Part shown: one piece after another, positions 12,219 to 62,902 of the stretch
Numbering within the stretch: the stretch's first letter is position 1
Layout: each line of letters begins with the position of its first letter
Virus record (IMG/VR): IMGVR_UViG_3300032038_000042
Reading direction: 5' to 3' (one strand)
DNA length: 64,000 bases
Source: a virus
Lineage: Duplodnaviria > Heunggongvirae > Uroviricota > Caudoviricetes
Notes under the pieces: model-generated
Databases searched by the model: none
What the model was told of the DNA's origin: nothing
The model's input: the letters and a program-made list of their open reading frames with translations, nothing else
Position numbers and translations under genes: made by a program

Positions 12219-12361
12219 ACCTCTTTAAAAGAAAATTTTTGCTATTTTTCTACCTTTCTAGCAGAAAACCAATTCGTTACTACCTATTTGTAACGTTTTT
12301 ACAGTAATATTATAGGCAGAGTTTCCTGAGAATTTCCAAAAAATTTTAAAAAAATGATTTT

Positions 12362-12733: not shown

Positions 12734-12739
12734 GCAAAA

Positions 12740-12943
12740 TTAAGCTTCTTCTGTTAAGCTTTTTGCAACTGCGAGTAACTGCTCTATTTCTGTTTTTTGC
12801 TCTTCCGTAAGCAGTAGTTGGTTATTGTTAGTTGCTATTTGATTTTTCAAATCGGTATTTTCGTTTTTCAATACCTTAAGTTTTGCAATTAAATCTTTTA
12901 TAAGCTGTAAAAGAGCTTGATTTGCTTCAAAAATATTATTCAT
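12740..12943 (-). CDS. Small coiled-coil protein (67 aa)
   Basis: Heptad-like Leu/Gln/Glu pattern. Confidence 0.35.
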   Translation of the reverse strand: MNNIFEANQALLQLIKDLIAKLKVLKNENTDLKNQIATNNNQLLLTEEQKTEIEQLLAVAKSLTEEA

Positions 12944-12958
12944 AATGACAATTATAGT

Positions 12959-47612: not shown

Positions 47613-47650
47613 AAAAGGGTTCCAACTTTGGAACCCTTTTTTCTTTTTTA
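47613..47650. terminator. Bidirectional intrinsic terminator (AAGGGTTCCAA / TTGGAACCCTT + T-run)
   Basis: Perfect 11-bp stem with a 3-nt loop, between convergent genes. Confidence 0.7.
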
Positions 47651-48748
47651 ACGAACTTCATCTACTTTAGGAGGTTCTCTAAGTTTAACGTTTTTCCTTT
47701 CTTCCTCTTCTTTGTAGTAGTCAAAAACATTTTGATCTAAATCAGGTTGGAAATCTCCAAGTACACCATCTTTGCAAGCCCACCAAGATTCATCTACATC
47801 AATTAAAGTACCATCGCAAGGTGCTCTAACTTCTCCTTCAAGACTTTGGTCTATCGGATTTTCAATAAATGCAATTTGTTCACCTTTTTTATAATGTCCT
47901 AGAGGATTTCCTCTTAAATATCTGTAAATACCATCTCCGTAAGTTGTAAGTTGGAAAGACTTCTTATCGTAAAGATTTGGAAGATAAGTAAGGTTGTAGT
48001 TATTTCCTTTTTTCCAGAAAGTGTGTTTAGGAAATTTTACAGCACTATTTCTTTCATCATACTGCCACTCTCTATCAAACACTTTATCAAAAGTCCAAAG
48101 TTGACCAATTGCCGTTAAGAATTTTTCAAAATCATTTACTTCCCATTCTACCCAATTTGGATCTCTTCTTTGATCATAACCCATCCCTGAAAATTCATAA
48201 GTAAATGCAATTTTATTAAAATCAATATCTACATGTCTTTTAATAGTCGGAGTATCATCTGTTAAAATAAATTGTGTTTTACTTCTTATGGCCCAATCAA
48301 TGTATGTAGGTGCATTCTTATTTAATGCAATCGAAATGCACGAAAGGACGTTTGGACTATTATGTACATCTACAACAACGTCAACATTTCTAATAATTGA
48401 TTCTAACTCATCCATTACAGCTTCTTTTGTAGTTTGAGTAGTTGTATTAAAATACCTATTTAAATCGTTTGTTTCTGTTTCTTCTTCCTGAATAAATTCC
48501 CTTTCGTTATACTTTAATCCATTTTGATTGAGTGCATTTACTACAGTCACTCGGTTAAAGTACGTGTTCTTCCACCAACCCTCTGTACTGTTAGGATTTA
48601 TTTTTCTTAAAAACTCTGAAACCATTTTTACAGCATTAGATTCATTTCCGTGAGTTCCACCAATTACTAAAAGATGTAGAGCGTCATTTTCCCTGTCTGC
48701 ATCTTTTTTAAACCATTCGTTTTCTAATTTTATTGTTTGCTTATACAC
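47648..48748 (-). CDS. Zinc-dependent hydrolase of the succinylglutamate desuccinylase/aspartoacylase (AstE/AspA, M14-like) family
   Basis: ...LLVIGGTHGNESNAV... (the GG.HGNE metal-binding motif of the family). Confidence 0.55.
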   Translation of the reverse strand: MYKQTIKLENEWFKKDADRENDALHLLVIGGTHGNESNAVKMVSEFLRKINPNSTEGWWKNTYFNRVTVVNALNQNGLKYNEREFIQEEETETNDLNRYFNTTTQTTKEAVMDELESIIRNVDVVVDVHNSPNVLSCISIALNKNAPTYIDWAIRSKTQFILTDDTPTIKRHVDIDFNKIAFTYEFSGMGYDQRRDPNWVEWEVNDFEKFLTAIGQLWTFDKVFDREWQYDERNSAVKFPKHTFWKKGNNYNLTYLPNLYDKKSFQLTTYGDGIYRYLRGNPLGHYKKGEQIAFIENPIDQSLEGEVRAPCDGTLIDVDESWWACKDGVLGDFQPDLDQNVFDYYKEEEERKNVKLREPPKVDEVR

Positions 48749-48763: not shown

Positions 48764-49075
48764 TTACAGAAAAATATATCCAAACTTTTCTAGCTCTTTA
48801 AATCCGTTTTCCCCTTTTCCAAAAATAATTTCTTCGCCCGAAGGAAGAATTACTGAATATGTAGGTTCATTTTCTCTTCTTTTCATTACTGATCTGTACT
48901 TGTAACAGACACCACTTTCCAACAAAATTGAGTAAAGAGTATAATTGTTTCCTTCTTTCTTTTGGTATACATGCCATTTGCTTATACTTCTCAAGTCTAT
49001 TAATCTATCTTTACCAAAAACTTTAAGCATAATAGGTTTACCATTGTACTCGTCCAGAGTAATATCCTCACTCAT
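48764..49075 (-). CDS. Hypothetical protein
   Basis: Trimmed to the ATG (MSEDITL) preceded by GGGGAAAACA. The longer ORF would overlap tdk by 113 nt. Confidence 0.4.
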   Translation of the reverse strand: MSEDITLDEYNGKPIMLKVFGKDRLIDLRSISKWHVYQKKEGNNYTLYSILLESGVCYKYRSVMKRRENEPTYSVILPSGEEIIFGKGENGFKELEKFGYIFL

Positions 49076-49643
49076 TGTTTTCCCCTTTCTCATTACATCT
49101 TCTATTGTAGCATTTTGCACAAAGACATAAATATTTCGAATCACCAACTTCAATTGCGGATGTTTTGTTAAAGTTAGCATAAGAGTAATTAGCTATTTCG
49201 CTTCCGCAATCTTGACATACAGAATTTAATTTTTTGATTTTTTCGCAGAAAGGAAGGATTTGAATTGTTTCAGGGAAAAGGTTACAATCTGAATCTGCTA
49301 ACAATCCTCCAAAATAAACATCATAATCGTTTTGATAACATAGTTGATGAGCACCAGGAATCATAAAGTACTCATCTACAAAAACTGCTTCAAACTTTTC
49401 GTAAACAATCCAATCTAGAAAACCTTTTTTAATATCTTCGACTTCTTCAATAAAGAAAAGATCTTTAAAGTTTTCTTCAAGCTTTTTTAAATCAACTCCG
49501 CCAGAGTGTGTAAAATAACCTCTGTCATCTTTCTTTGGGCGTATCAAAAGGACTTTCTTTTTAGCAAATAAGCATCTTTCCAACCGCTGAAAAAGTGCAG
49601 TTGATTTGCCAGAATACATTGGTCCGCAAATTAATGTTTTCAT
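49068..49643 (-). CDS. tdk: Thymidine kinase
   Basis: P-loop ICGPMYSGKST and ...VDEYFMI..., plus a C-terminal zinc ribbon CQDCGS...CAKC. The 191-aa length is typical of type II TK. Confidence 0.8.
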   Translation of the reverse strand: MKTLICGPMYSGKSTALFQRLERCLFAKKKVLLIRPKKDDRGYFTHSGGVDLKKLEENFKDLFFIEEVEDIKKGFLDWIVYEKFEAVFVDEYFMIPGAHQLCYQNDYDVYFGGLLADSDCNLFPETIQILPFCEKIKKLNSVCQDCGSEIANYSYANFNKTSAIEVGDSKYLCLCAKCYNRRCNEKGENNE

Positions 49644-50089: not shown

Positions 50090-50608
50090 TTACTTTCCGC
50101 TAGAACCGAATCCACCTTCTCCACGATTTGTAGAATCGAGTTCGTCAACTTCTTTTACCCAAACGTACTGGCTCTGATTAACCATATCTGTATTAAAGAT
50201 TGGATGACAAATCATCTGGCAAACTCTTTCACCTTTTTTAATCTCAAAAGGCTTCGTAGTTGTATTTACCAAAATAGCTCCAACTTCTCCACGGTAGTTT
50301 GAGTCAATCGTTCCCGGAGTATTCAAAACAGTAATACCATTTTTAAGTGCTAAACCGCTTCTTGGACGAATGTCACCAACCCAACCCTTTGGAATAGCAA
50401 CTTTAAATCCGAGAGGAACTAAAACTCTTCCTAAGCCTTCTTCCAATGTAAAAGGAGGAACAGTTACATCTGCATTTGCGTAACAATCCATTGCTGCATC
50501 ACCTGCTCTCGAGTATTCAGGAAGATGAGCATCTTCAGTTACCTTCTGAAAATTGATTCTTGCAAAAATCGCTGAATCGTCTTCTTTTTTAAGATCTTCG
50601 TATGTCAT
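50090..50608 (-). CDS. dut: dUTP pyrophosphatase
   Basis: ...RSGLALKNGITVLNTPGTIDSNYRGEV... and ...GERVCQMI... are the conserved dUTPase motifs (172 aa). Confidence 0.8.
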   Translation of the reverse strand: MTYEDLKKEDDSAIFARINFQKVTEDAHLPEYSRAGDAAMDCYANADVTVPPFTLEEGLGRVLVPLGFKVAIPKGWVGDIRPRSGLALKNGITVLNTPGTIDSNYRGEVGAILVNTTTKPFEIKKGERVCQMICHPIFNTDMVNQSQYVWVKEVDELDSTNRGEGGFGSSGK

Positions 50609-50647: not shown

Positions 50648-51232
50648 TTAACGCTTTCGAGTTAACGTAAATTTCTTTTTAATGTCTGTAGTCACTTTAT
50701 CTTTTATTGGATCATATCTGTAACTTTCTACAAAAAAGTCTTTATTGAGACAATCTGCGTTCAAAGCATTTCCTAAATGCAAATGATACTTCCAAAAGTC
50801 TTTGTCATACTCTTTCAATCCGTGAGTTTCGCAGTAATGAGTAAAACGCTTTCTGCACAATTCAAGCGGTTTTAAACTTAACTCGTTTCCAAAAACATTT
50901 TTAGGGTAATCTTTATTTATAGAAATACCTGCAATTAAAGCGGCCATTATTAAATTACCACTTCCGCAGGTTGGATCTAAAATTGTTTTTGTTGCAAATT
51001 CTTCTAAAGTACAATCGTACATCTCCAGCATATCCGCGCAAAGGATTGGGGGCGTGTAAAAGGCTCCCAATTCATCCCTTTCTTCTTTTGTAAGACCACC
51101 GTATTGGTCTGTACCTGATTTTATTTCGTTGAGATATTCTTCCGATTCTCTTTTTATCTCTTCTTTAATTTCTTCTGAAAGTTTCATAATAATAATTATA
51201 GTGAGCTTTAATGAAAAGTTTTCAATATTCAT
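50648..51232 (-). CDS. N-terminal half of a gamma-class amino-methyltransferase (motifs X and I only), truncated
   Basis: ...GAFYTPPILCADML... (motif X) and ...ILDPTCGSGNLIMAALIAG... (motif I, SAM binding). No NPPY motif in the 194-aa ORF. Confidence 0.5.
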   Translation of the reverse strand: MNIENFSLKLTIIIIMKLSEEIKEEIKRESEEYLNEIKSGTDQYGGLTKEERDELGAFYTPPILCADMLEMYDCTLEEFATKTILDPTCGSGNLIMAALIAGISINKDYPKNVFGNELSLKPLELCRKRFTHYCETHGLKEYDKDFWKYHLHLGNALNADCLNKDFFVESYRYDPIKDKVTTDIKKKFTLTRKR

Positions 51233-51236
51233 AACC

Positions 51237-52067
51237 TTATAGTTTCAAATAGTTTACGGAAAACAGACGATATTTTTCTTTCAACCTCAACTTTTCTTTT
51301 TCAAAATTATTTTTGAAATTTTCGTAGTTGAATTTTCTGTACAACTCCTCAATCTCTTTTCCCGTTAAAAAGTTCCAAACCATTACATTCTTCAATGAGT
51401 CTTCTACGAAAAGGTTTAAATTGTTTTTATACCTCTCCCAATTTTCAAAAAGATTTTTCAATACTTCATTTTTCGCGGAGTTGATTTCCAATTGTACTTC
51501 AAACTCTTTTTTAATTTCATTCCAACCCTGCAAAGTCCTCACTTCCATTAAATTGTTGAAGTCAAAAACCCCAATTCCGTCGAATCCGTATAAATCACTC
51601 TTTACAGAAACATCCAAGGTGTAAAAAGCATTACGCAAAATCTTTCCACTATTTCCTTCAATGTTTACAAAACCCTCAAAGCCCAATTCTTTTAAGATTT
51701 CAATTAAGCACTCTCTTTCTTCAATCTCAAAAACATCTAACCAATTGTTATCTGCTAACAAAGGTAAAGCGCCTAGCCAACCGTACATTTTGTTCTTTCT
51801 AAAAAAATCTTCAAGTATTCTACAATCCTTTTGAGATCTTGCATTGAAAAGATTTAAAGGTTTTTTAATTACAAATTGAGAAAGGTAATTAGCATTTTCT
51901 ACAATAGGTTTATCAAAATCTTTTGAGAAATTCAAAGCATACAATACTTGGGTAGAAACATAAGGACAACAAAATGCTCCTGATTTCCACTCCTTGTATT
52001 TTGAACCTCTCCAAAGTATTCTACCTTTGTTTTTTAAGAATTGTTCTTTTAAAATCATATTAATCAA
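51237..52067 (-). CDS. Hypothetical protein, paralog of 52962..53726
   Basis: Shares WRGSKY/YRGSLY, NLFNARS/NLFNANS, LGFEGFVN/LGFDGFVN and IGVFD/IGLFD with the ORF at 52962. Confidence 0.5.
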   Translation of the reverse strand: MINMILKEQFLKNKGRILWRGSKYKEWKSGAFCCPYVSTQVLYALNFSKDFDKPIVENANYLSQFVIKKPLNLFNARSQKDCRILEDFFRKNKMYGWLGALPLLADNNWLDVFEIEERECLIEILKELGFEGFVNIEGNSGKILRNAFYTLDVSVKSDLYGFDGIGVFDFNNLMEVRTLQGWNEIKKEFEVQLEINSAKNEVLKNLFENWERYKNNLNLFVEDSLKNVMVWNFLTGKEIEELYRKFNYENFKNNFEKEKLRLKEKYRLFSVNYLKL

Positions 52068-52156
52068 AAAATACCTTCAATAACATCCTTTCTAAATCCT
52101 TCACAATCAAAGTAAGTATATCTCCTGAAAACTCTTGATCTAAGTTAGATTAGCTT

Positions 52157-52954
52157 CTAATCCTCCCTTTCGTAAAGGTATTCGAACAACGTTCCAAAAA
52201 AGTCAAGTTTCACATTTTTACTGATTCTAGGGTCCCAATAAACATTCATTACTTTTTTAATTTCTTCAGCATCTACGATTTTATTATTCTTTGGTAGTTT
52301 GTCATTTTTAATATCTTCAAAAATATCCATAACAGTTTTGTGAATCACTTTTTCACTCTTTTCACCATTCAGGTTGTAAAGAATTTTTAATTTCTCTCCT
52401 ACTTCCCTAGCCAAAGCATCTACTTCATACTGATTCGAAAAATACTTTACATTTCTTTCAATACCTAAATCGTATGGTAAATCAGGATCGTATTGAATGT
52501 AATTCCTATTTATTTTTAAGGGTTTTAGACCTTTCTTACTCATTGATTTATCAATTTTATTTTGTTGCTGAAAATGTGTGTCCTCGTGTACAAAAGCTGT
52601 CCAAACATAATCTGCTATTTCATATAATTCCTCTTCATCTAACAGCTTTATTAAATCTAAAGTAGTTTTATCTAAAAGAAAAACGATCTTGTTTTCTGTA
52701 ATATCATAGTATCCACTTAAACCGGATTCTATCTGAAATAATCCAAAATGATTTCTAGTATTAAAATTATCAAAATCCTTTTTAGTTTTTTTATCTAAAA
52801 GATAATCTCTTAAATTTCTAAAAAAACTTAAAAATAAAGACTTGTCGGATTTTTTGTACACCTCTGTTAGAATTTGGTTGCATAAACCCTCTTTTAAGGA
52901 GATTGTTTTTATCTGATAATTTTTAAAGTTTATTGTTTTCATTTTCTTCACCAT
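52157..52954 (-). CDS. Hypothetical protein with an HExxH (zincin-like) motif
   Basis: ...YVWTAFVHEDTHFQQQNKID... Confidence 0.45.
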   Translation of the reverse strand: MVKKMKTINFKNYQIKTISLKEGLCNQILTEVYKKSDKSLFLSFFRNLRDYLLDKKTKKDFDNFNTRNHFGLFQIESGLSGYYDITENKIVFLLDKTTLDLIKLLDEEELYEIADYVWTAFVHEDTHFQQQNKIDKSMSKKGLKPLKINRNYIQYDPDLPYDLGIERNVKYFSNQYEVDALAREVGEKLKILYNLNGEKSEKVIHKTVMDIFEDIKNDKLPKNNKIVDAEEIKKVMNVYWDPRISKNVKLDFFGTLFEYLYERED

Positions 52955-52961
52955 AGTTTAG

Positions 52962-53726
52962 TTAGGAGAGCCTGAAGGTCTTCCTATGGCTTTCTAATTT
53001 GAATCGCTCTTGTAATTTCTCTGGATTTATATTATTCACTATACTTTCAATATCATCTAAACTAATAAGGTGTTTGTTTACATCGGATAACAGAATCAGT
53101 TTGATCAAGTCTTTTTTATTGGATACAAGATCAAATTTATCCTCCGCAAACATTCTTACATACTTTAGTTCATTTTCTATATCAGCTTTTACTTTTGGAA
53201 TTTTAGAGATTTCTGAAAAGCCTTTATACTGTTTTCCTTGCTTGAAAAACTTCAAATGGTCAAATAATCCAATACCTGAAAAGGATCTTGTGCTTCCGAA
53301 GTTTCGTCTTAGGTAAAAACCTTTTACATGTTCAAAATTCACAAATCCATCAAAACCAAGATCCTTTAGAAACTTTATCAACTCTTCCTTTTTATCTGGG
53401 CTTAACAAAAGCCAATCCTCTGTACGCAAAGTTTTCAAATCCTGTAAGGATATCGAACTTTCTTTTTTTGTTAAGTATGTTTTAAGTATCTGAAAATCCC
53501 TGTCAGAGTTTGCATTAAAAAGATTACAAGATTTGTTTAAGTAAAATTCAGTTACATATCCTACTTCGTGAGAACCCTCATCCGTAGCATAATACAGAGC
53601 ATAAGAAGGTTCTGAAGTTACATAAAAGCACTTAAAAAGAGATAGACTTTCGTTCCAAAATGGATATAAAGAGCCTCTGTAAAATAGTCCTCCGAGTCTT
53701 TTTAGTTTTTGTTCTGTAATTAGCAT
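52962..53726 (-). CDS. Hypothetical protein, paralog of 51237..52067
   Basis: See the shared motifs listed at 51237..52067. Confidence 0.5.
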   Translation of the reverse strand: MLITEQKLKRLGGLFYRGSLYPFWNESLSLFKCFYVTSEPSYALYYATDEGSHEVGYVTEFYLNKSCNLFNANSDRDFQILKTYLTKKESSISLQDLKTLRTEDWLLLSPDKKEELIKFLKDLGFDGFVNFEHVKGFYLRRNFGSTRSFSGIGLFDHLKFFKQGKQYKGFSEISKIPKVKADIENELKYVRMFAEDKFDLVSNKKDLIKLILLSDVNKHLISLDDIESIVNNINPEKLQERFKLESHRKTFRLS

Positions 53727-53756
53727 TTTCTTTCTTCTCCTTTAAGTGTCGTTTTT

Positions 53757-54380
53757 CTAACCTCTGTACTTTACCAAATTACTCCAATCCTTTTCTTTTA
53801 CAATTCCAAATCCATAAATATGGATAGTTTCAGCGATTTGAGACTCTTCAAAAGGTTGTAAAAGTTTGTAAGGATAATAATCATTGAAGTCAACAATTAT
53901 AGCATTCAAGGAATTCATAGATTCTGTTAAATGTTTCATTGGCTCGGATAAACTTTTACTTGGAAGGGTAATATCAAATTCGTGTAAAAACTTACTATAC
54001 CTTGCGACTGTAATTTCATAGTTTGTAAACATGTCTAGAAAGGACTGATTTGTACCTTTTACAAAGTTTTGAGAAAGTTGTGGTTTTTTATCCAAAAGTT
54101 CCTTTATTCTTTTGATATTATTCTGTATTCTCTTATCGACATTCTGAATGTTGTAATACAGCTCTTTAAGTTCGTTTACCGCGTTTTGTTTTGTTTTTGC
54201 TTCAAAAAGCTCTCTATTATCTTCGGAGAACTCTTTTACTTGGGAGATGTATTTTTGAAACAAATAGATGTTATGACGTAAATCCTCGATTTCAACAGTA
54301 AGTTCATCTGTTTCTTCTGTAAAATCAATTTCCATTTCATTCAAGATGTCTTCTGCTTCTTTTTCTGTTAATTCGCTCAT
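53757..54380 (-). CDS. Hypothetical protein (207 aa)
   Basis: ORF in the leftward operon. Confidence 0.45.
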   Translation of the reverse strand: MSELTEKEAEDILNEMEIDFTEETDELTVEIEDLRHNIYLFQKYISQVKEFSEDNRELFEAKTKQNAVNELKELYYNIQNVDKRIQNNIKRIKELLDKKPQLSQNFVKGTNQSFLDMFTNYEITVARYSKFLHEFDITLPSKSLSEPMKHLTESMNSLNAIIVDFNDYYPYKLLQPFEESQIAETIHIYGFGIVKEKDWSNLVKYRG

Positions 54381-54398
54381 AACAATAATATAGGTTTT

Positions 54399-54917
54399 TT
54401 AATTGTCGTAATTCTTGAGAGTTTCTTCCTTGATCATGGCACGCATTTCGTCGTACTTTTTGTGAGCTTCTTCAGGAGAGATAATCTTAAATCCAAAACT
54501 CTGAACAACCTCGGAATTGTTGTACACTTTTATATTATTTTCCATTACATTAAACCTTGCAATAAGTCTTTTATGTAAATCGATTACTTCTGTATATTTT
54601 TGTAAAGCAGGTAATTTCAAAGAGAATTGAATATTGTCAAGCCTGTTTATTGACTCTATGTACTCACTGTTTATTTCTTCAATTTCATCCTTTGAAAGAG
54701 TCTTATAAAAAAGTCTTAATTCATCACTGTAACAAGTTTCAATTCTCTCAATTACATCCTCAATTAAAGTTAAAGCTTCCTGCATCTGCTCAATTGCAGC
54801 TTTTTTCCTTGATTCAACATCCTCTTTGAGAGCTTGTGTTCTGAACTCTGTATAAGCATGGGAGTATATTTGTAAGTAATTGTTTAGTTCTTCAAACAGT
54901 TTTAATAGTTTTTGCAT
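54399..54917 (-). CDS. Hypothetical protein, tandem paralog of 54935..55483
   Basis: Both begin MQKLLKLF(E/D)(E/K)L and end ...FGFKIISPEEA(H/A)K(K/L)Y... Confidence 0.5.
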   Translation of the reverse strand: MQKLLKLFEELNNYLQIYSHAYTEFRTQALKEDVESRKKAAIEQMQEALTLIEDVIERIETCYSDELRLFYKTLSKDEIEEINSEYIESINRLDNIQFSLKLPALQKYTEVIDLHKRLIARFNVMENNIKVYNNSEVVQSFGFKIISPEEAHKKYDEMRAMIKEETLKNYDN

Positions 54918-54934
54918 ATATCACTCTTCTAGTC

Positions 54935-55483
54935 TTATCTTATAAGAGTTCTTCCGTTTAGTTTGCTGTTTTCTTTTAATTCCTGTTGAAGTATCTTATA
55001 CCTTTCTCCGTATAATTTTGCGGCTTCCTCTGGGGAAATTATTTTAAAACCAAATTTTACAACCTCTAGCTGCTTGTTGTAAAACTTGATATTGTTGTTT
55101 AAAATCTCAAATTGCTTAGTTACTTGAGAATGCATTTCTATAAGTTCTGAGAACTTCTGAACCCCTGGTAAAGTCATTTCTACTTTAATGTAGGTAACTT
55201 CATTAAACAATTCCTGATATCTATCTGAAATTTCCTCTGCAGCTTCTTTTGTAAGAGTTTCTAATAACCCTACATAACCTTCTTTTGTAAAACATTTTGA
55301 AATTTTTTCTCTAAGATACTTTATTTCTGCTAGCGCATACTCCATTCTACTTTTTGCATCTTCAGCTGTTTCATGAGTAAATGATTCTTGTTTACGTAAG
55401 CAGAGTTTGTAATTGCGATAAGCATCCTCATATTCTAAAATCCAGTGCTGTAATTTATCAAAAAGTTTTAATAGTTTTTGCAC
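54935..55483 (-). CDS. Hypothetical protein, tandem paralog of 54399..54917
   Basis: See previous entry. Confidence 0.5.
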   Translation of the reverse strand: MQKLLKLFDKLQHWILEYEDAYRNYKLCLRKQESFTHETAEDAKSRMEYALAEIKYLREKISKCFTKEGYVGLLETLTKEAAEEISDRYQELFNEVTYIKVEMTLPGVQKFSELIEMHSQVTKQFEILNNNIKFYNKQLEVVKFGFKIISPEEAAKLYGERYKILQQELKENSKLNGRTLIR

Positions 55484-55634
55484 AAGCTACCTCTTTTTAC
55501 CTTCTCTATATCTTTTACTCCTTCTCCAAGAAATCCTCTTCTTGTAAGTCGTTAAAAGTAATAACCTCTTCTTTAATTTCTTCTGAAAGCTTCATAAACG
55601 TATATATTATAGGTCGCTGTTTTGCACTTTTTAA

Positions 55635-56588
55635 CTAAAGCTTCCCTGCGTAGGAGGAAGACCATCTTAGCATATTATAATCCAAGACAGTAGCAATGCC
55701 ATAAACGAGAGTGTCATCGGATTCTATAAGCACTCTCTCTTGCTCTTCGTCAAAAAAGAAACAACATTCGTCCTCAACTATGTTAATGTTTACAGAACCA
55801 AAGAAAGGGTTTTCTTCTTTAAAGTGCCTCCAGCTAAAATAATGAAATGTTACATTACCTATTTCACCTTGAATATCTGTCAAGAAGCGATACTTTTGAA
55901 GCATCATTTTAATGTATTTAAGTATTTCTAAACTAGAATGATTCCAAGTCCTACGCAAGTACTCTATATGGGACTTCCTGGCGTCCAACTTATTATCAGT
56001 ATACAAAATGTCCTTATAACCATACATAAATGGTTTTTCATAAAGGATGTTTAAGGCCTTAAAGTTTTCTTCGATGTAATTTCTTAAAGAATCTTTAACA
56101 CCTACGCCAATAATAACACCCTTGATAGCTTCTTTAAAAGACTTTACGTATTCTACTGGCCCACAGATTGACCTTTTGCAGAGTCTTACTTCTTTTTCAT
56201 GTTTCCAATCTAGTGATTTTTTATACTGTAGAAAATCTTCGCTATCACGATAAATAACATCATGAATCTCAATACTGTTATCCTTTGCTATGCTTTCTAC
56301 TTTTACTCTATCAAAAATTAAACAAAGACCTTTGTGATTGCAATAGTATGACCACATTAAATTATTTTTATATGCGTTTTTTGATAAGGAAGCTATTTTT
56401 AAATAAAATTTTAAGTTTTCTATTTCCTGAAGCATCTCAGATGTATTGTTAACACTAAAAAACTCTTTTGGGTCGTTAAGATAAGATGCTTGGCTAAATT
56501 TAAGACTACTTAAACATCCATTTATATCCTTTTTATTACTAACGTTAACAATTTTATACAAAAAATCTTTTTCATTAAGTTGTAACAT
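55635..56588 (-). CDS. Hypothetical protein (317 aa), possibly DUF2971-like
   Basis: ...ASYLNDPKEF... and ...WSYYCNHKGLCLIF... weakly resemble the NDPxE/aromatic core of DUF2971. Tentative. Confidence 0.4.
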   Translation of the reverse strand: MLQLNEKDFLYKIVNVSNKKDINGCLSSLKFSQASYLNDPKEFFSVNNTSEMLQEIENLKFYLKIASLSKNAYKNNLMWSYYCNHKGLCLIFDRVKVESIAKDNSIEIHDVIYRDSEDFLQYKKSLDWKHEKEVRLCKRSICGPVEYVKSFKEAIKGVIIGVGVKDSLRNYIEENFKALNILYEKPFMYGYKDILYTDNKLDARKSHIEYLRRTWNHSSLEILKYIKMMLQKYRFLTDIQGEIGNVTFHYFSWRHFKEENPFFGSVNINIVEDECCFFFDEEQERVLIESDDTLVYGIATVLDYNMLRWSSSYAGKL

Positions 56589-56590
56589 TT

Positions 56591-57784
56591 TTACTCCTTC
56601 TCCAAGAAATCTTCCGGTAATCCAATCTCTTTTAATATTTCTTTATCTGTCCATGGATGAGACCAATCTACATGCGGAAGATAATCGTAAAAACTATTTA
56701 CTCCTGCTGATGTACTTACAGCCTCACAAAGCATTCCTAAAATGTAGTTGGTTAAACCTTTTCTTTCTTTACCGTAAAGTTCCTTGCAAGAATACCACCA
56801 TTTATTGAAGTTCTCTCTAGAGATTCTATCTTTAAATACAAAAAGATCACCACCGCGTCCTTTAAACCAACCCTCTTTTACTTTTTCATCAAAAACGTTG
56901 TTAAGGTTGTAACGAATATCGTGACTCTCGGTTGTATGGACTCCATTAGATGGAGTCCATATAGTTTTGAAAAAGCATTGAAAGTTTTTTACAAGCTCTG
57001 CAAGCCTTTTATCTGCAATACATTTTAGATTTACAGAAAGCTGTATTTGGAAGTTTGTATCCTTTAACTGCAAATCCCACTTTTTTGGGAAACAGTTACC
57101 ATCAACGACGTGAAAGTATGCATCATGTTGACTGTTGTAGTTTCTTATTGCAGAGAGTAACTCTGTCTGTTTTTTATTCAAAGAAATGTTTTCATAAGTG
57201 TACTTGTTTATTACATCAGAAACGATTCTAGTAATCGCTAGACGATCTATTGCAGCATCTGTAAAGCAGTTTTTTATATCTTGATATGTAGATACATGAG
57301 CAAGTATTTTAGAATCTTTGTAAGTATTTCTTGGAGAAAGATATATTATTTCTTTTGCTACTTTACTCTCGAGCATTTTGTTAACAATCTTTTTACTCAA
57401 ACTACTTGACTTTCCGTACGGTGGATTTGCTATGACCAAATCAAACATTCTTTTTTCTTCTCCTAGTTCCTGTGAAGCTTCCTGCATTTCCACTTCAACA
57501 AACTTCAAGAATTCTTCTTCACTCTCCCAATCATACTTTAGTGGAATAGCCTTAAAGAGATTTGCTGGTTTTGCAAACTCTAAAAAGTTGATCAAAGCTG
57601 GATAATCAAAAACAACGAATTGCGTATTCTTATACTTATCCAGGATAAGTTCAACAGTGCGAGCATCTCCAATTGTAAACAAACAAGCTGTTTTGGGTTC
57701 TTCTTTTATTTGTGAAGTGAAAAGATCCGCGTATTCATCTTTCGACTTTGGATCCTTTTTCATGTTTTCTAATGTCCAAGACAC
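56591..57784 (-). CDS. Amino-methyltransferase with an NPPY catalytic motif (probable N6-adenine DNA MTase)
   Basis: ...FDLVIANPPYGKSSS... (motif IV). Confidence 0.55.
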   Translation of the reverse strand: MSWTLENMKKDPKSKDEYADLFTSQIKEEPKTACLFTIGDARTVELILDKYKNTQFVVFDYPALINFLEFAKPANLFKAIPLKYDWESEEEFLKFVEVEMQEASQELGEEKRMFDLVIANPPYGKSSSLSKKIVNKMLESKVAKEIIYLSPRNTYKDSKILAHVSTYQDIKNCFTDAAIDRLAITRIVSDVINKYTYENISLNKKQTELLSAIRNYNSQHDAYFHVVDGNCFPKKWDLQLKDTNFQIQLSVNLKCIADKRLAELVKNFQCFFKTIWTPSNGVHTTESHDIRYNLNNVFDEKVKEGWFKGRGGDLFVFKDRISRENFNKWWYSCKELYGKERKGLTNYILGMLCEAVSTSAGVNSFYDYLPHVDWSHPWTDKEILKEIGLPEDFLEKE

Positions 57785-57871
57785 CTTTTTGTACCTCTTT
57801 ATACAACATATAATATAGGGTTGTTTTCAGTAAATTTTCAATTTCTTTTGAAAATTCTCAAAATCCTCTTT

Positions 57872-58663
57872 TTACTGTACATTTTCCAAATTCTCCAAAA
57901 TACAATCGCAAGCGTCAATCCAAGCATCGTAATCTTTATTTGAAAAGAAGCTGTCGATTTCAGATGGTCCAATTACATTTACCGGAAGTCTATAGTCAGC
58001 CTCGTTTTTTGAAAAAACAGTGTTTGTAAAAGTAAGCAAAATCTGACGAGGCCTTTTCAGGAACTTTTCTGCTTTATCTGGATTTTTATAAAGGTAAACA
58101 AGACCTTCAATTCCAAGTTTGTAAAAAGCCAAATAATCCAATTCACCTGAAAAGTTTTTTATCTGAATGTTTACATCAACTCCATCTTTTGATTGAGCAA
58201 AAGCATCAACAAAACGCTCATTTGAAGGATCAACCGGATCGTAAGTCGACTTATCAATATAACTTCCAAATTCTGTCAAAATGTACTCTGCAAGAATTTC
58301 TCCAACATTTCCTCGGAATTTGTTTGCAATTTTAGTTGCTTGCTCTTCTGTGCACTCTTTTTCCTTTTTAAGAGACTTGTAAAAAATATTCCAATACTTG
58401 TCACAATACTGAACCCACGCTTTGCAAAAACTTACCAAATCCTTGCTTGAGACTTTTATCTTGAAACCATCCCAAAAGCTCTTGTAATGTTGCAGGATGT
58501 AGCTTTCGAGGTTTTCGGTCTTAAAAATGTTTTGCATATTTCTATTCTGTTCCCAAGCGTAAAGTTTAGATTGTGTAATGGTCTTTAACTCTTTCATCCT
58601 TTTACCTACCTTTTTAGCACTGAATGTTTCTTTTTGCGAAAACCTTTGTAAGAAGGTTTGCAA
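57872..58663 (-). CDS. Hypothetical protein (263 aa)
   Basis: The ORF overlaps the helicase gene by 50 nt. Confidence 0.45.
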   Translation of the reverse strand: MQTFLQRFSQKETFSAKKVGKRMKELKTITQSKLYAWEQNRNMQNIFKTENLESYILQHYKSFWDGFKIKVSSKDLVSFCKAWVQYCDKYWNIFYKSLKKEKECTEEQATKIANKFRGNVGEILAEYILTEFGSYIDKSTYDPVDPSNERFVDAFAQSKDGVDVNIQIKNFSGELDYLAFYKLGIEGLVYLYKNPDKAEKFLKRPRQILLTFTNTVFSKNEADYRLPVNVIGPSEIDSFFSNKDYDAWIDACDCILENLENVQ

Positions 58664-60575
58664 TCTTCTTATTCTCTACAATGAGGTTTATAAAACCTGC
58701 TCTATCTTCATTGTAGTACCTGTTAAGGTTTTCGCTTACGCGATTTTTCTGAACTTGCTTGATGTAGTAAGTAATCATCTCCTTAAAAGATTGCTTGTTT
58801 GTTTTCTCCTCTTTTTCTACATCTTTTGATTCTTCCGTTTTTGTAGCAGCATCTTTTGTTGATTTTTCTTCATTCGAATCCTCTACATCTTCGGTAGCTT
58901 CTAATTCTTCTTTTTCTGAAGAAGATTTTGCTTTTTTATCGTCAATTTGTTTCTTAATTGAGGTTGCTGAAAAGCCTGCACTACAAGCATGAGACTTTGA
59001 ACTGTAGAAATCCCAGAGCTCCTGCAAATCAGTTAACTCTTCTTCTGAAAGATCAACTTTGTCGAAGTTTTTGAAAACTTTGTTATTGTTGAATTCCATC
59101 TTAAAGAGAGTTTCAATATCAATTTGGGCTTCTATTGCGTGTGTTTTCTTAAATTCTGGTGGTTCGTCACTGTTTACAGCTCCACTAGACTCGTAAATGT
59201 CTCCAAGCTTCAACCAACTTGTCCATGGTGTTTCGTCTCCGAGGCTGTACTCCTGCAAAGCAAGCATCAAAGATGCAATTTCGTAAGCATTATCGACTCC
59301 AACATAAACTTGAGCAAGATCATTTTGGTTTTTGTTTACAGGGTAGTTGGAATTTCTCAAAACGCGACCGATTTGCTGAACCTGTTTTTGTCCGGAATGT
59401 GTCGAAATGTAAACCGCAGAAAAGCTTTTTACATTTACACCTTCAGATATTGTATCAACCTGAAATACAACTAAGGGTTTATCCAAAAAGTCTTTTGCTA
59501 CAAAAACTCGTTTTTTATCCTCTATCTCAAAATCCAAATCGTTGTTATCCAAAGCATCAAGCATACTAAGGATTGTACTCTTTTCAACTTCTTTTCCGTT
59601 AATTGTAGATGTTGCATCTACAAACCTGTTCTTTTCGTTACCTTGCTTGTAACTATGAATTGCAAAAACGTGCACTCCTTCGATTTTGTTTTTGATATCT
59701 GTAATTGGGTCAATTCCATTACTGCAAATCAAAATTCGAGGATACTTTCCTTCATACTGCTCAAAACGTTTTATTTCGTTTTTGATAATCATTTCAACTT
59801 CAGATTTGAAAAGCTGAATTTCTTTTGTAGCTAAATCTGGTTCTTTATCGTAAACAAGGTTCAAAGTAGGTTTACAAATCCAGTTATTTGCACCTGCAGT
59901 TGCAACCGAGCAGAGAGCCTTATTTGTAGTTTTCTTAAAAATGTCGAACTGATACTGTGCAGGAGTACCACTCATGAAAAGCGAAATCTTAAAAAGTTTT
60001 GAGAATTTGTCGATTTCACTCTTGAGTGCATCTCCGTTACCTTTGTAATTATGGGCTTCGTCGTAAGCTATAACTCCAATTGAACGTCCAAGTTTCTTTT
60101 CATTTTCAAGGAATTTCTTGAAACGGTTGAATCTGATTTTAGCTTCAACTTTTTTACCGCCCCAAATAGATGCATCACAAGCTACAACAAAAACGTGCTT
60201 ATTTTCAGGTGAAAGAGGATTCAAGTTTCCGTCTTTTACCGAAAGGTGCTCAAAACTCTCGTTACAATTACTAGAATTGAGAAGAACAAAATTACCTTCA
60301 ATACCTGCAGTTGTAATGTATTCTTTCATTTCTGAAAGTTGCTGGTCACAAAGACTCAATCTTGGACAAATAAATACCTGTACTGATTTTTCTGGGTTGA
60401 ACTTTTCAATAAACGAAATCATTGCTTCAAAAGCGACATTTGTTTTACCAGAACCTACACAAGCGTTAATAGCAAAAAGTTTCTGATCTTCTTCAAGAGC
60501 TCTATCAATTGCTTCTTTAGCTTCCCACTGCCACGTACGCTCTTTCAACCTAGTTATTTGCTCACTTCTTAGCAT
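58614..60575 (-). CDS. Superfamily-2 DEAH-box helicase
   Basis: Walker A ...CVGSGKTNVA..., DEAH box ...IAYDEAHNY..., motif III ...FMSGTPA..., motif VI ...QQIGRVLR... Confidence 0.7.
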   Translation of the reverse strand: MLRSEQITRLKERTWQWEAKEAIDRALEEDQKLFAINACVGSGKTNVAFEAMISFIEKFNPEKSVQVFICPRLSLCDQQLSEMKEYITTAGIEGNFVLLNSSNCNESFEHLSVKDGNLNPLSPENKHVFVVACDASIWGGKKVEAKIRFNRFKKFLENEKKLGRSIGVIAYDEAHNYKGNGDALKSEIDKFSKLFKISLFMSGTPAQYQFDIFKKTTNKALCSVATAGANNWICKPTLNLVYDKEPDLATKEIQLFKSEVEMIIKNEIKRFEQYEGKYPRILICSNGIDPITDIKNKIEGVHVFAIHSYKQGNEKNRFVDATSTINGKEVEKSTILSMLDALDNNDLDFEIEDKKRVFVAKDFLDKPLVVFQVDTISEGVNVKSFSAVYISTHSGQKQVQQIGRVLRNSNYPVNKNQNDLAQVYVGVDNAYEIASLMLALQEYSLGDETPWTSWLKLGDIYESSGAVNSDEPPEFKKTHAIEAQIDIETLFKMEFNNNKVFKNFDKVDLSEEELTDLQELWDFYSSKSHACSAGFSATSIKKQIDDKKAKSSSEKEELEATEDVEDSNEEKSTKDAATKTEESKDVEKEEKTNKQSFKEMITYYIKQVQKNRVSENLNRYYNEDRAGFINLIVENKKIANLLTKVFAKRNIQC

Positions 60576-60744: not shown

Positions 60745-61065
60745 ATGACATTACTTGATCATCAGTTTCTTTTAAGTCTTCCAAAACGGAGAGGTTTTAC
60801 AAAGTGTACAATAAATAACAATGTATACGCAAATATCTACACACTTGGAATTCCGAACAGAGCTTCTAAGTCAGGTTATTCATATTTCTGCGGAACAGAT
60901 AAAGGTAATCCGTGGAAAGGAAGAGAGAATGCGATAGACGAGATTTACCACGATTTGAAGGATTACGTCGATCGCAGAATTGGTACAGAATTTGAAAAAA
61001 ATGTAAAGGATTTAATTCCTTACGTAAAGCGTTTTGAAAGAGCATTTCCAGGAGTATTGAAGTGA
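60745..61065 (+). CDS. Hypothetical protein (106 aa) preceding rtcB
   Basis: ORF with an ATGA overlap into rtcB. Confidence 0.45.
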   Translation: MTLLDHQFLLSLPKRRGFTKCTINNNVYANIYTLGIPNRASKSGYSYFCGTDKGNPWKGRENAIDEIYHDLKDYVDRRIGTEFEKNVKDLIPYVKRFERAFPGVLK

Positions 61066-62291
61066 TTGAAATTACAGGAAAGTATAATACAGCAAAAGTT
61101 TTGGTTTCTGATTGGACAAAGTTGGAAGAAGCTTGTCACAAGCAGATTTTGAATTTGCTTAACCAGAAGTTTGCAGAAGGATCAAAGATTGCTATCATGC
61201 CCGATTGTCACAGCGGAGCTGGCTGCGTAATTGGTTTTACTCAGACTATTGTTGACAGAGTCGTTCCAAATCTTGTCGGAGTTGATATTGGATGCGGAAT
61301 GCTTGTTTTGAAAATCGACAAAAAGTATGGCAAAGAACTCTTTAACAAACCAAATCTTGAAAAGCTTGACAAAGTAATCCGTCAGCATATTCCAATGGGA
61401 ATGAATCACAGAAATAAAAAACATGCTTTTTGTGATAAAGTTCACATTAATGAAATTAAGGCTCCAATTAACGCAGAAAAGCTTATGTTGAGTATTGGAA
61501 CAATAGGTGGTGGAAATCACTTTATCGAAGTTGATAAGGACAGCAATGGAGATTATTACATCGTAATTCACTCCGGATCTCGTCACCTCGGAATTGAAGT
61601 CTGTAAATACTATCAGAATTTGGCTATCAAATATCACTCTTCAAATACAAAAGAAAGAGATGAATTGGTTGCAAAATTGAAAGCTGAAGGAAGAGAAAAA
61701 GACATTCAAGCTGAACTTGCAAAGATCAAAAAGGAACCAATTCCAAACGAACTTGCATATTTGGAAGGAAACGATCTTAAAGATTATCTTCACGATATGA
61801 AACTTGCTCAGGAGTATGCAATTTGGAATCGCGAAGCAATGCTTGATGAAATTATGGAACACATGGGAATCAAAAAGAAGATGATTCTTGATAAGTTCTG
61901 TACAATTCACAACTACATCGATGTTGAAAACAGAATTCTTCGTAAGGGATCAATTTCTCTTCAGAAAGATGAAACAGCTATTATTCCAATAAATATGAGC
62001 TACGGCAGCTTGATTGTAAAGGGAAAAGGAAACGCAGAATACAACTTTTCAGGTCCTCACGGAGCAGGAAGGTTAATGTCGCGTTCAGCAGCAAAAGAAT
62101 CTCTTAAAATGGAGGATTTCAAAGCTTCTATGAAAGATGTTTTTACAACTTCAGTTTCAACTGCAACAATTGACGAAGCCCCAATGGCTTACAAACCTGC
62201 TGAAGATATTTTGGAAAACATTAAAGATCTTTGCGATGTAGTAGAAGTTATTAAACCAATCTACAACGTAAAAGCAGGTGACGAGGAATAA
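61062..62291 (+). CDS. rtcB: RNA 3'-phosphate ligase RtcB
   Basis: ...MPDCHSGAGCVIGF..., ...IGGGNHFIEV..., ...CTIHNYID... and ...GPHGAGR... are the RtcB metal-binding and guanylylation motifs. 409 aa. Confidence 0.8.
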   Translation: MIEITGKYNTAKVLVSDWTKLEEACHKQILNLLNQKFAEGSKIAIMPDCHSGAGCVIGFTQTIVDRVVPNLVGVDIGCGMLVLKIDKKYGKELFNKPNLEKLDKVIRQHIPMGMNHRNKKHAFCDKVHINEIKAPINAEKLMLSIGTIGGGNHFIEVDKDSNGDYYIVIHSGSRHLGIEVCKYYQNLAIKYHSSNTKERDELVAKLKAEGREKDIQAELAKIKKEPIPNELAYLEGNDLKDYLHDMKLAQEYAIWNREAMLDEIMEHMGIKKKMILDKFCTIHNYIDVENRILRKGSISLQKDETAIIPINMSYGSLIVKGKGNAEYNFSGPHGAGRLMSRSAAKESLKMEDFKASMKDVFTTSVSTATIDEAPMAYKPAEDILENIKDLCDVVEVIKPIYNVKAGDEE

Positions 62292-62477: not shown

Positions 62478-62697
62478 TATGCTAAAATGAGGTGAAATAA
62501 ATTCACAAGCAAGAGCTGCTCCTCATTGCTGAAGGCTCTTATAAAAATTGTGTGAATGTGTATGACAGTTTCTAGATCTTGTCACGTGACTTAAGGGGCT
62601 AAGGCCCTTCAGTGAAGTAAGAGTCTTCCGAGTTATAGGATTAGAAATTGTAACGAAACAGCACCCTTTTGACAGAGGTTGTGATAGGACGTTTTTT

Positions 62698-62770
62698 GGC
62701 CCTATTCGTTAACTGGATAAACGACCAGACTTCTAATCTGATAATCCCCGTTCGAGTCGGGGTAGGGTCA
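62698..62770 (+). tRNA. tRNA-Arg (anticodon TCT)
   Basis: Hand-folded cloverleaf. Acceptor GGCCCTA/TAGGGTC (7 bp, one G-U). D-arm CGTT-aactggata-AACG with G18G19. Anticodon arm CAGA-cTTCTAa-TCTG with U33 and A37. 4-nt variable loop. T-arm CCCCG-TTCGAGT-CGGGG. Discriminator A, no encoded CCA. Confidence 0.6.
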
Positions 62771-62902
62771 ATTTACCCATTGTGGATGGAAACGGTTTTA
62801 TGGTAGTTAGGTATAACAAAGGTCTTAAAACCTAGTTCTACAAGTGACTTGCGAAAGACAATCTAACAGTCAGCTACTTTTGCAAGTTGCGAAACTTTCT
62901 AC

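Follow-up and report, generated by a model that had tools for sequence, protein, structure and literature searches.

Do two methyltransferase open reading frames (ORFs) that lie 5.4 kb apart on the same strand of a phage genome encode one enzyme, the decayed remains of one, or proteins that have come together by coincidence? The question is raised by the region between the dUTPase and SF2 helicase genes of an uncultivated animal-gut jumbo phage (genome >200 kb), of which a stretch of 64 kb, referred to below as the window, was analysed.

Layout of the locus

The interval between the dUTPase and the helicase contains ten minus-strand ORFs (g1 to g10), each of at least 170 aa, and, as an eleventh element, a 26-codon relic ORF at 55515-55595. 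The original prediction of eleven co-directional genes was therefore right about the strand and wrong about the count. The features are as follows.

50090..50608, minus strand: dUTPase; conserved right-hand boundary, 91% identical in L008, L012 and L098
50648..51187, minus strand: g1, AdoMet-binding half; 179 aa from M16; Pfam N6_Mtase 2.8e-6; motifs X, I, II and III
51237..52067, minus strand: g2 (A1), 276 aa; family A
52157..52954, minus strand: g3, HExxH protein, 265 aa; contains FVHEDTHFQQ
52962..53726, minus strand: g4 (A2), 254 aa; family A
53757..54380, minus strand: g5, 207 aa; sole island gene common to the nearest relatives
54399..54917, minus strand: g6 (B1), 172 aa; paralog of B2
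54935..55483, minus strand: g7 (B2), 182 aa; orphan cassette gene
55515..55595, minus strand: recombination scar, 26-codon ORF MKLSEEIKEEVITFNDLQEEDFLEKE plus stop; N-half codons 1-10 run into the final 7 codons of a C-half
55635..56588, minus strand: g8, 317 aa, DUF2971 protein; the first of the inserted cassettes
56591..57451, minus strand: g9, catalytic/recognition part, residues 112-397; MFDLVIANPPYG (motif IV), beta4-beta7, TaqI-like recognition region
57452..57784, minus strand: g9, N-domain, residues 1-111; divergent Rossmann beta1-beta3 without canonical motif I
57872..58597, minus strand: g10, 241 aa from M23 (the ORF reaches 58663); conserved companion of the helicase, PD-(D/E)xK-like motif
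58614..60575, minus strand: SF2 helicase, 653 aa; opens the conserved helicase-g10-methyltransferase module

The methyltransferase and HExxH motifs, the DUF2971 ORF and both paralog pairs that had been named beforehand were all recovered in place, and the description of a variable accessory region is borne out by the nearest relatives (related loci are denoted by L and a number). L008, L012 and L098 share ~90% DNA identity with the window up to position 51214 and again from 60627, the DNA homology spanning 49104 (L012) or 49224 (L008) through 51214, and inside the interval g5 is the only gene in common. Base composition does not differ between the island and its flanks. It forms the hypervariable centre of a conserved module that consists of an SF2 helicase, then g10, then a probable DNA adenine methyltransferase.

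Two methyltransferase proteins and their pairing

The full ORF of g1 (50648-51232, 194 aa) contains GAFYTPP and ILDPTCGSGNL; judging by all homologues, its true start is most likely M16 at position 51187. The N6_Mtase match exceeds the curated Pfam cut-off. Motifs X (FYTP) and I (DPTCGSG) were thought to be the only ones in this ORF; both are there, accompanied by motifs II (GNE, within VFGNEL) and III (HLGNAL), and the protein terminates at the point where motif IV would come next. The g1 family comprises 93 homologues, confined to phages and all short (most 130-210 aa), none of which includes the motif IV half. FxTP, DPTxGxG and GxE are invariant among them, as are the motif residues of g1; the motifs are intact down to 39% identity, and length and C-terminal tail are conserved as well. 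Of 39 loci of cellular relatives, only a few do not have NPPY in the ORF itself. Purifying selection on g1 is strong (dN/dS 0.045-0.14 in comparisons with four orthologues; the value for dut is 0.17). Because of these dN/dS values and the 93 free-standing homologues, a split enzyme is preferred over a decayed one, the two options having originally been offered side by side.

g9 (56591-57784, minus strand, 397 aa) carries the predicted motif IV, FDLVIANPPYG, at residues 114-124 and matches Pfam Eco57I (5.4e-6); when all six frames of the window were searched for (N/D/S)PP(Y/F/W), the g9 copy was the only one found. Across 64 homologues, residues N120, P121, P122 and Y123 show no or almost no variation, and the C-terminal end, WTDKEILKEIGLPEDFLEKE, is conserved. 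g9 had been regarded as a bare half; however, its AlphaFold2 model (pLDDT 88.8) displays a complete seven-strand Rossmann sheet (beta1 at residues 32-36, beta2 at 55-60, beta3 at 76-81, beta4 at 114-119) with a target recognition domain C-terminal to it, both of which are gamma-class features. In the N-domain of the same 64 homologues D60 never varies, and conservation is 90% or higher at G39 and E87. IGDARTV stands where motif I is expected, motif X is absent, and a profile comparison with the canonical N-half revealed no similarity (hhalign probability 0.1). The N-domain exists as two alleles, which assort independently of the recognition region. Since g9 is, by its model, a structurally whole methyltransferase domain, the simple picture of two halves of one enzyme is incomplete. 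Motifs X, I, II, III and IV do not occur together in one polypeptide, this order being found only across g1 and g9.

In the window the two genes are not adjacent, eight genes lying between them. In L013 and L014 only 5 nt separate the g9 orthologue (82%) from the g1 orthologue (93%) behind it; the two gene types overlap by 4 nt in L010 and also overlap in L028, and they are neighbours in at least 12 loci beyond L013/L014. An NPP(Y/F) gene is located upstream of the N-half, on the same strand and at a distance of 0-4.7 kb, in 12 of the 13 strong N-half loci (viral contigs), and L098 repeats the frame of the window with two intervening genes. Some catalytic halves have no N-domain (N-less) and start exactly at motif IV. 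Three of them, beginning MFDLI(V/I)ANPP(F/Y), follow the N-half in L007 and two do so in L006, with start codons overlapping the prior stop by 8 and 11 nt; in L028 and L023-25 an N-less C-half lies upstream of the N-half. Essential motifs are missing from each of these polypeptides (g1 and the N-less halves of L006, L007, L023-25 and L028); g9 of the window has a full fold in the model and may or may not depend on g1. Both gene types form large phage-only families. Taken together, the gene arrangements support the earlier view that the two ORFs are functionally linked pieces and no coincidence.

We consider it probable that g1 and g9 constitute a naturally bipartite gamma-class N6-adenine methyltransferase, the genes of which are separated by cassettes. 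g1, a canonical AdoMet-binding half in a separate protein that ends exactly before motif IV, would bind AdoMet and dock on the beta4 edge of the catalytic half, completing the sheet in trans; g9 would supply the NPPY catalytic loop, beta4-beta7 and an M.TaqI-like recognition region, after its divergent Rossmann N-domain. The phage DNA would be methylated by such an enzyme on adenines, with the exchangeable recognition region determining the sites, and the mark might protect the phage DNA from host restriction or from the helicase/nuclease of the module itself. The adjacency of the two genes, the N-less halves and the census of N-half loci argue for the bipartite enzyme, as do the scar ORF, the mosaicism of N-domains and recognition regions and the linkage to the helicase, which are considered below.

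What speaks against it is the complete sheet in the g9 model, together with the conserved G39, D60 and E87, according to which g9 may bind AdoMet and work alone. g9 could then be self-sufficient by means of its own divergent N-domain, and g1 would be functionally separate in the window, either serving N-less halves elsewhere in the >200-kb genome or acting as an AdoMet-binding regulator or sequestering protein. This fits the single NPPY gene of the window, the N-domain-bearing enzymes of L002/L003 and L099, which have no N-half within 9-10 kb, and the loci L008 and L012, which retain g1 and have no catalytic half at this position. However, an N-domain-bearing catalytic gene is followed by an N-half in L010, L013/14, L016-22, L050 and L098, so that redundancy of the N-half in the presence of an N-domain would be hard to explain; the N-domain also lacks the glycine-rich motif I, motif X and any profile similarity to AdoMet-binding halves. 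We regard the self-sufficiency of g9 as possible, if rather unlikely.

Helicase linkage, cassettes and recombination

The helicase matches Pfam ResIII (2.8e-13) and DEAD (3.3e-11) and precedes both g10 and a C-half gene in L008, L012, L020-22, L051, L098 and L099; synteny thus links it to the methyltransferase in at least eight loci, and in L009 it is fused to the C-half. Its identity to the L008 and L098 copies is only 32-36%, against ~90% in the flanks. g10, whose start is most likely M23 (58597) by comparison with the L008 homologue, adjoins the helicase in variable order and is found between two helicase ORFs in L020/L021. KFRGN..E..E, P..P..E..DA and IQxKN are invariant in its seven homologues. 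Since g10 has no Pfam or PDB sequence match (nor one in PADLOC), it is assigned as a putative nuclease by its motif alone.

The helicase, the putative g10 nuclease and the methyltransferase with its recognition region might be viewed as a disassembled restriction-modification-like machine, comparable to Type ISP and Type III enzymes and aimed at host DNA or competing phages, in which case the methyltransferase would shield the phage DNA from this machine and not from host restriction enzymes. The linkage of an SF2 ATPase to a methyltransferase, typical of those enzymes, is present here (ResIII match, synteny, L009 fusion), and the invariant E..E, DA, IQxK pattern of g10 is a mere candidate for their PD-(D/E)xK nuclease domain. 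On the other hand, homology between g10 and a nuclease family could not be detected, the helicase yielded no restriction match in PADLOC, just weak Cas3/PbeA-like ones, and the methyltransferase pair of L013/14 has no recognisable helicase or g10 upstream. Such a machine can be entertained only tentatively.

In the window, eight cassette genes occupy the junction between the N-half and the catalytic half, among them g8, the two B paralogs, g5, the two A paralogs and the HExxH protein. The cassettes belong to phage-only orphan families, which are reshuffled at the same site in relatives. g8 belongs to the DUF2971 family (PF11185; 26.1 bits, cut-off 22; E 2.3e-5), as had been anticipated, and also matches the PADLOC candidate system PDC-S31 (4e-16) and phrog_1762 (2.5e-17); it is absent at the corresponding position in L008, L012, L013, L046 and L098. 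The two pairs of diverged paralogs hold up, with 35% identity for A1/A2 (E 8e-26) and 37% for B1/B2 (E 3e-33). A1, for which an ATG start at 52058 is likelier than the TTG at 52067, has an orthologue in L009 (56% identical) directly after the N-half, and A2 has one in L001 (84% identical, dN/dS 0.10) beside the N-half. Invariant in family A are GS, FNA, D, W, GF, R and G.F; five copies surround the module in L099, and no Pfam or PDB match was found for the family. The B2-B1 pair directly follows the g9 orthologue in L046. g5 is 92% identical in L008, L012 and L098 (dN/dS 0.10), follows g9-like genes in L049, L052, L053 and L055, and gave weak matches only (phrog Srd 1.4e-3). g3 does contain the predicted HExxH motif; its structure model matched neither a zincin nor any other known fold.

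A counter-defence role of the cassettes, as proposed in the original prediction, is plausible as a conjecture, and the searches yielded no positive evidence for it. Searches of the island in PADLOC, PHROGs, Pfam, NCBIfam and PDB returned only the methyltransferase and DUF2971/PDC-S31 matches, the cassettes matching no known anti-defence protein. A1, A2, B1, B2 and the HExxH protein gave nothing in PHROGs, Pfam, NCBIfam or PADLOC, and the PADLOC scan that had been suggested matched no A, B, g5 or HExxH family to described anti-defence proteins.

The 26-codon ORF is a recombination scar, a chimera of the N-half start and the C-half end. Its repeats are 97% identical to the 5' end of g1 and 96% identical to the 3' end of g9, the 30-nt N-half start is present in two copies in the window (0 expected from 100 shuffles), and the junction from the scar to B2 is collinear with that from the g9 end to B2 in L046. 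Among relatives, N-domains, recognition regions and cassettes are all reshuffled at conserved DNA ends. The tandem N-less genes could be unexpressed recombination cassettes, that is, a store for switching recognition specificity by recombination in which only fused or first-position genes are active. The conserved 5' (motif IV) and 3' DNA ends around highly variable cores, the independent assortment of N-domain and recognition alleles and the scar, as recombination at these very ends, would suit such a store, but each N-less copy possesses a start codon (ATG) placed one or two codons ahead of FDLI, the copies have an SD-like sequence or a coupled overlap and are under purifying selection (0.16), and the repeats are direct, so that switching would delete cassettes. 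We find this explanation doubtful.

It is very unlikely that the enzyme methylates RNA (rRNA or tRNA adenine) and not DNA: the matches behind this reading span just the ~165-residue Rossmann core, whereas M.BseCI, M.TaqI, MmeI and CamA, all of them DNA enzymes, align with both domains of the whole protein, the sequence families are N6_Mtase and Eco57I, and the genetic linkage is to a DNA helicase. Finally, that the 194-aa ORF is the decayed remnant of a formerly full-length methyltransferase gene, as its halt just short of motif IV and its distance from the sole NPPY gene might suggest, is hardly credible and already contradicted by the homologues, the dN/dS values and the conserved length and tail; g1 is not a decayed gene.

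Comparison with known systems

Type ISP (LlaGI-like) and Type III are restriction enzymes, and DarB of P1 is a methyltransferase-helicase fusion. The module resembles these systems in bringing together an SF2 ATPase, a putative PD-(D/E)xK protein and a methyltransferase of the gamma type that has a recognition region, and in the helicase-methyltransferase fusion of L009. It differs from all three in that its components are separate genes and the g10 nuclease is putative, and no sequence-level match between the module and these families was found.

M.TaqI, M.BseCI and CamA, gamma-class N6-adenine enzymes with Eco57I-like and N6_Mtase Pfam domains, are single polypeptides. In the phages, by contrast, a protein of its own forms the canonical AdoMet half, and catalytic halves occur with no N-domain at all or with a non-canonical one that lacks motif I.

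Two-polypeptide methyltransferases exist in nature among the C5-cytosine enzymes, namely M.AquI and M.EcoHK31I (PMC3404938). As in these, the phage methyltransferase domain would be split over two genes, adjacent or overlapping in relatives of the window, neither of which would be complete alone. In the C5 enzymes the break follows motif VIII or lies at motif IX, whereas in the phage amino-methyltransferase it would fall between motifs III and IV, where the AdoMet-binding subdomain meets the catalytic one, and one N-half goes with up to three catalytic halves. Natural splitting has been reported earlier for C5 enzymes only, and a gamma-class N6-adenine case would be new.

Type I HsdM/HsdS and the multispecific phage C5 methyltransferases such as SPR and phi3T (Trautner 1996, cited in PMC12707154) likewise combine a constant part with exchangeable recognition modules that are shuffled by recombination at conserved borders. 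In the multispecific enzymes the recognition domains reside in one chain, unlike in the module described here. In Type I systems the whole catalytic domain is constant and HsdS alone varies, whereas the variable unit of the phages includes half of the catalytic sheet.

The island and its genomic frame

The island and the two genes that bound it are the following:

50648-58663, minus strand: island of ten tightly packed ORFs, bounded by dUTPase and SF2 helicase
50090-50608: dUTPase gene (dut), island boundary
58614-60575: SF2 helicase gene (Pfam ResIII, 2.8e-13), island boundary

The original prediction had placed eleven genes here; ten were counted, and the eleventh element exists as a 26-codon relic. 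The motifs on which that prediction relied were all found: FYTPP and DPTCGSGNL in g1, the free-standing AdoMet-binding half (N-half; 50648-51187), VIANPPYG in g9, the catalytic/recognition gene (56591-57784), and HEDTH in g3. The two paralog pairs it described are likewise real, A1 and A2 (g2 and g4) being 35% identical (E 8e-26) and B1 and B2 (g6 and g7) 37% identical (E 3e-33). Pfam matches over the curated cut-off were obtained for g1 (N6_Mtase, 2.8e-6), g9 (Eco57I, 5.4e-6) and g8 (DUF2971, 2.3e-5), and the sole (N/D/S)PP(Y/F/W) motif in the six frames of the 64-kb window is that of g9. The most likely start of g1 is M16 (51187), giving a protein of 179 aa and occupying the same place in every homologue; for g10, the partner gene of the helicase, it is M23.

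GenBank phages gave no match to the 9-kb region, to g9 or to g1, and scans of IMG/VR with g9 and with the C-half alignment returned no relative. Locus contexts were gathered instead by looking up exact proteins, scanning with an N-half alignment and scanning JGI metagenomes. The close relatives, among them JAIFIL010000002.1 (417,893 bp) and ERZ11466755 NODE_1 (342,217 bp), are contigs of 134–418 kb from the metagenomes of pig gut and further samples. The DNA of three related loci (L008, L012 and L098) is ∼90% identical to the window as far as 60627 on the RtcB side and as far as 51214 on the dut/thymidine kinase (TK) side; between these positions only g5 (53754-54380) is common to them and the window. 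Since such similar flanks enclose an interior that shares only g5, this is a truly variable island in a conserved frame. Its composition carries no foreign-DNA signature and is not distinct from that of the flanks; promoter and terminator scans were at chance (36 versus 37.5 expected and 5 versus 5.0 expected, respectively).

Several other genes of the window and its relatives deserve mention. The RtcB RNA ligase gene (61062-62291, plus strand; Pfam, 3e-63) adjoins a tRNA-Arg(TCT) gene (62697-62771, plus strand); its orthologue in the 342-kb relative L012 (1969-4302) contains an intein, which is absent from the window copy. A 138-aa ORF overlaps the window TK gene (48764-49643), which is intact. 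In L008 (11602-13307), the 418-kb relative, an HNH-like ORF of 286 aa and a second TK 3' fragment of 40 aa come after the TK gene, an arrangement that suggests insertion of a homing endonuclease. A few kb past the dut/TK block, L008 (15334-17019) and L098 (15487-17172) encode a eukaryote-type topoisomerase IB (Topoisom_I_N, Topoisom_I, Topo_C_assoc). The window also carries auxiliary-looking genes for a NAMPT-like protein (27261-28550; phrog_448), a GtrB-like glycosyltransferase (5686-7425) and an AstE/AspA-like deacylase (47648-48748).

The two gene types of the proposed split methyltransferase

A search of 5.8 billion proteins yielded 93 relatives of g1, all of them short (most 130–210 aa) and all lacking the motif IV half. 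Within their alignment FxTP (motif X), DPTxGxG (motif I) and GxE (motif II) are invariant and HxGxAL (motif III) is nearly so, the proteins stopping shortly past motif III. Of 39 cellular loci with the nearest relatives of the N-half, all except a few encode it as part of a full-length enzyme whose ORF also contains NPPY, which makes the free-standing form specific to these phages. Comparison of g1 with four orthologues gave Nei-Gojobori dN/dS ratios of 0.045–0.14, below the 0.17 of the dUTPase. Of the two readings first offered for the separated pieces, a decayed enzyme is rejected for g1 on these ratios and the family size, and a split enzyme is supported and extended here.

The catalytic gene g9 has 275 relatives, many of which are 284–306 aa long and start exactly at M-(S)-FDLIIANPPYG, without the first 110 residues; some of the remainder have a different N-terminus or a different C-terminal part. 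Compared with g9 segment by segment, the N-domain occurs as two alleles (75–85% or 23–32% identity) and the core from beta5 to the recognition region as many (13–40%), and the motif IV region (41–90%) and the C-end (56–94%) are conserved. The segments of g9-type proteins evidently assort independently. An AlphaFold2 model of g9 (64 sequences; pLDDT 88.8, pTM 0.84) predicts a complete sheet, with beta1 at 32–36, beta2 at 55–60, beta3 at 76–81, beta4 at 114–119 followed by NPPY, and then beta5–7 and a helical region, so that g9 exceeds a mere half. D60, where beta2 ends, is invariant, and conservation reaches at least 90% at G39 (following beta1) and E87 (following beta3). Neither motif I nor motif X is present in canonical form in the N-domain, and the g1-family profile has no similarity to it (hhalign probability 0.1). 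The methionine preceding FDLVIANPPY (M112 in g9; 57449-57451) shows conservation of at least 90% across 64 fused homologues and in the window lies 11 nt downstream of AGGAG; it is possibly an internal start producing a catalytic half without the N-domain, or else a relic of gene fusion.

The two gene types travel together. In an HMM census over 45 loci, 12 of the 13 strong N-half loci on viral contigs had an NPP(Y/F) gene 0–4.7 kb upstream in the same orientation. In L013 and L014 the g9 orthologue (82%) is followed 5 nt on by the g1 orthologue (93%), and L010 has a 4-nt overlap between the N-half gene and the gene for an NPPF protein of 360 aa. L098 has the exact frame of the window: helicase, g10, catalytic gene, g5, a ferritin-like gene, N-half and dut. 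A 128-aa N-half precedes three catalytic halves in L007, and in L006 an N-half precedes two; each of these halves starts at motif IV, the start codon of the first overlapping the N-half stop by 8 or 11 nt. For such N-less halves (L006, L007, L023-25 and L028) the separate N-half is the only visible source of beta1–beta3 and of the AdoMet site, and the straightforward inference would be that it complements them in trans. g9 itself may or may not need g1: L002 and L099 have N-domain-bearing enzymes and no N-half nearby, and L008 and L012 have g1 and no local catalytic gene.

Also considered was a programmed frameshift by which the first catalytic half would be made as a fusion with the N-half; neither of the overlaps (AATAATGTTTGA and AATGTTCACTAA) contains a slippery heptamer, and fusion of a second or third half could never come about by such a shift.

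Assembly of the island and its cassettes

The gap between g8 and g7 holds a remnant of both methyltransferase genes:

55595-55515: relic ORF of 26 codons in the 151-nt gap between g8 and g7, reading MKLSEEIKEEVITFNDLQEEDFLEKE up to its stop

Its first 30 nt are those of the g1 start with one synonymous change, a sequence found twice in the window versus 0 expected (100 shuffles), and its last 26 nt match the 3' end of g9 with 96% identity. From the relic into B2 the sequence is collinear with the g9-end/B2 junction of L046, a 226-kb JGI contig in which B2-B1 come directly after g9. Composed in this manner, the relic makes the window look like two alternative locus versions joined head to tail. 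One would have been g9-DUF2971-N-half and the other C-half-B2-B1-g5-A2-HExxH-A1-N-half, the internal N-half and C-half having been deleted to a stub. Directly after the catalytic gene, other relatives have g5, B2-B1, an A gene or the N-half, and L018 has about nine small ORFs at the corresponding place. The 3' ends of catalytic genes are 90–95% identical in DNA between proteins otherwise 28–40% identical, and it is plausible that they act as homology arms for cassette exchange. The scar and the allele comparison show concretely how an accessory island grows in a giant phage, by the joining of alternative locus versions at short conserved gene ends.

A perfect TATAAT lies 10–15 nt upstream of the g1 ATG (51188-51214, minus strand), and the stretch upstream of g1 is kept in the scar copy (55596-55612, minus strand) and in L008 and L012. 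Transcription of the N-half gene may start from a promoter of its own, with a very short leader devoid of a Shine-Dalgarno sequence.

The original prediction viewed the island as a possible site of counter-defence genes. In addition to DUF2971, g8 matches the PADLOC single-gene candidate PDC-S31 (4e-16). The A, B and HExxH families and g5 have no match in PADLOC, Pfam, PHROG functions, NCBIfam or PDB sequences. When all aligned sequences of the A, HExxH and g10 families were scanned against Pfam, only scattered chance matches came up. Among 1.8 billion proteins only 24 represent the HExxH family, in which H123, E124, T126, H127, Q129, Q130 and R183 are invariant and E177 and D179 nearly so. 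All island genes tested are under purifying selection (dN/dS 0.10–0.22). A and HExxH genes recur round the methyltransferase module, with three HExxH and two A genes in L001, two HExxH genes in L002, and five A and two HExxH genes in L099, an 84-kb JGI contig where they occupy both sides of the helicase-g10-methyltransferase module (995-5212 and 10911-13674), a strong local expansion of these orphan families. The lack of housekeeping homologues among the cassette genes fits the counter-defence idea, and there is no positive link to a known counter-defence mechanism. As three orphan families clustering round the module, A, B and HExxH are candidates for conflict functions. The 102-kb pig-gut contig L002 also encodes a 399-aa IS605 OrfB/TnpB-like (Cas12f-related) protein (8450-9649, minus strand), ∼3 kb downstream of its methyltransferase genes.

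The wider module and known methyltransferases

In many loci the catalytic gene comes after the helicase and g10, whose order varies. Between genomes with ∼90% identical flanks these two are only 32–47% identical. In L020 (36-2858) and L021 (3024-5879) the helicase consists of two ORFs with a g10-like gene between them, so that the partner gene splits the helicase. L009 (5905-9213) encodes a fusion protein of 1102 aa, an SF2 helicase with a catalytic half at its C-terminus; next come an HExxH gene, an N-half and a gene of family A. The invariant E..E / DA / IQxK pattern of g10 is reminiscent of PD-(D/E)xK nucleases; the databases gave no support for a nuclease identity. Searches of PDB sequences with profiles of the A, HExxH and g10 families and with the helicase as query gave nothing usable, the RecA matches of g10 being an artefact of concatenated chains. 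That the module has a restriction-like role, rather than simple self-protection from host enzymes, is a live but unproven alternative. An action on RNA instead of DNA has a low probability; it is kept alive by a report that a two-subunit phage enzyme with a DNA methyltransferase annotation acts on 16S rRNA (bioRxiv 10.1101/2023.09.20.558713).

Tentatively, and with more doubt than confidence, we propose a combinatorial DNA methyltransferase in which one AdoMet-binding subunit would be common to several catalytic/recognition subunits. The interchangeable subunits would be the N-less halves and possibly also a form of g9 initiated at M112; helicase, nuclease and methyltransferase would constitute a disassembled Type ISP-like machine, and the junction between C-half and N-half genes would double as a recombination landing site for conflict-related cassettes. 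If true, a jumbo phage would obtain several methylation specificities from one cofactor module.

In the literature searched, the only natural two-polypeptide DNA methyltransferases found were the C5 enzymes M.AquI and M.EcoHK31I, and no report of a split amino-methyltransferase or of the present phage family was found. An adenine-type split exactly at the subdomain boundary would be a new route to diversify DNA modification specificity, especially since one cofactor half is encoded beside up to three catalytic/recognition halves. It would also offer the engineering of split, programmable adenine methyltransferases a natural scaffold that already exists. In fold and motifs the phage enzyme resembles gamma-class N6-adenine DNA methyltransferases of the M.TaqI/Eco57I kind; it departs from one defining feature of that class, the presence of all motifs in a single chain. 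In M.AquI and M.EcoHK31I the break lies after motif VIII or at motif IX (PMC3404938), whereas the putative phage amino-methyltransferase is divided at the boundary between the AdoMet-binding and catalytic subdomains.
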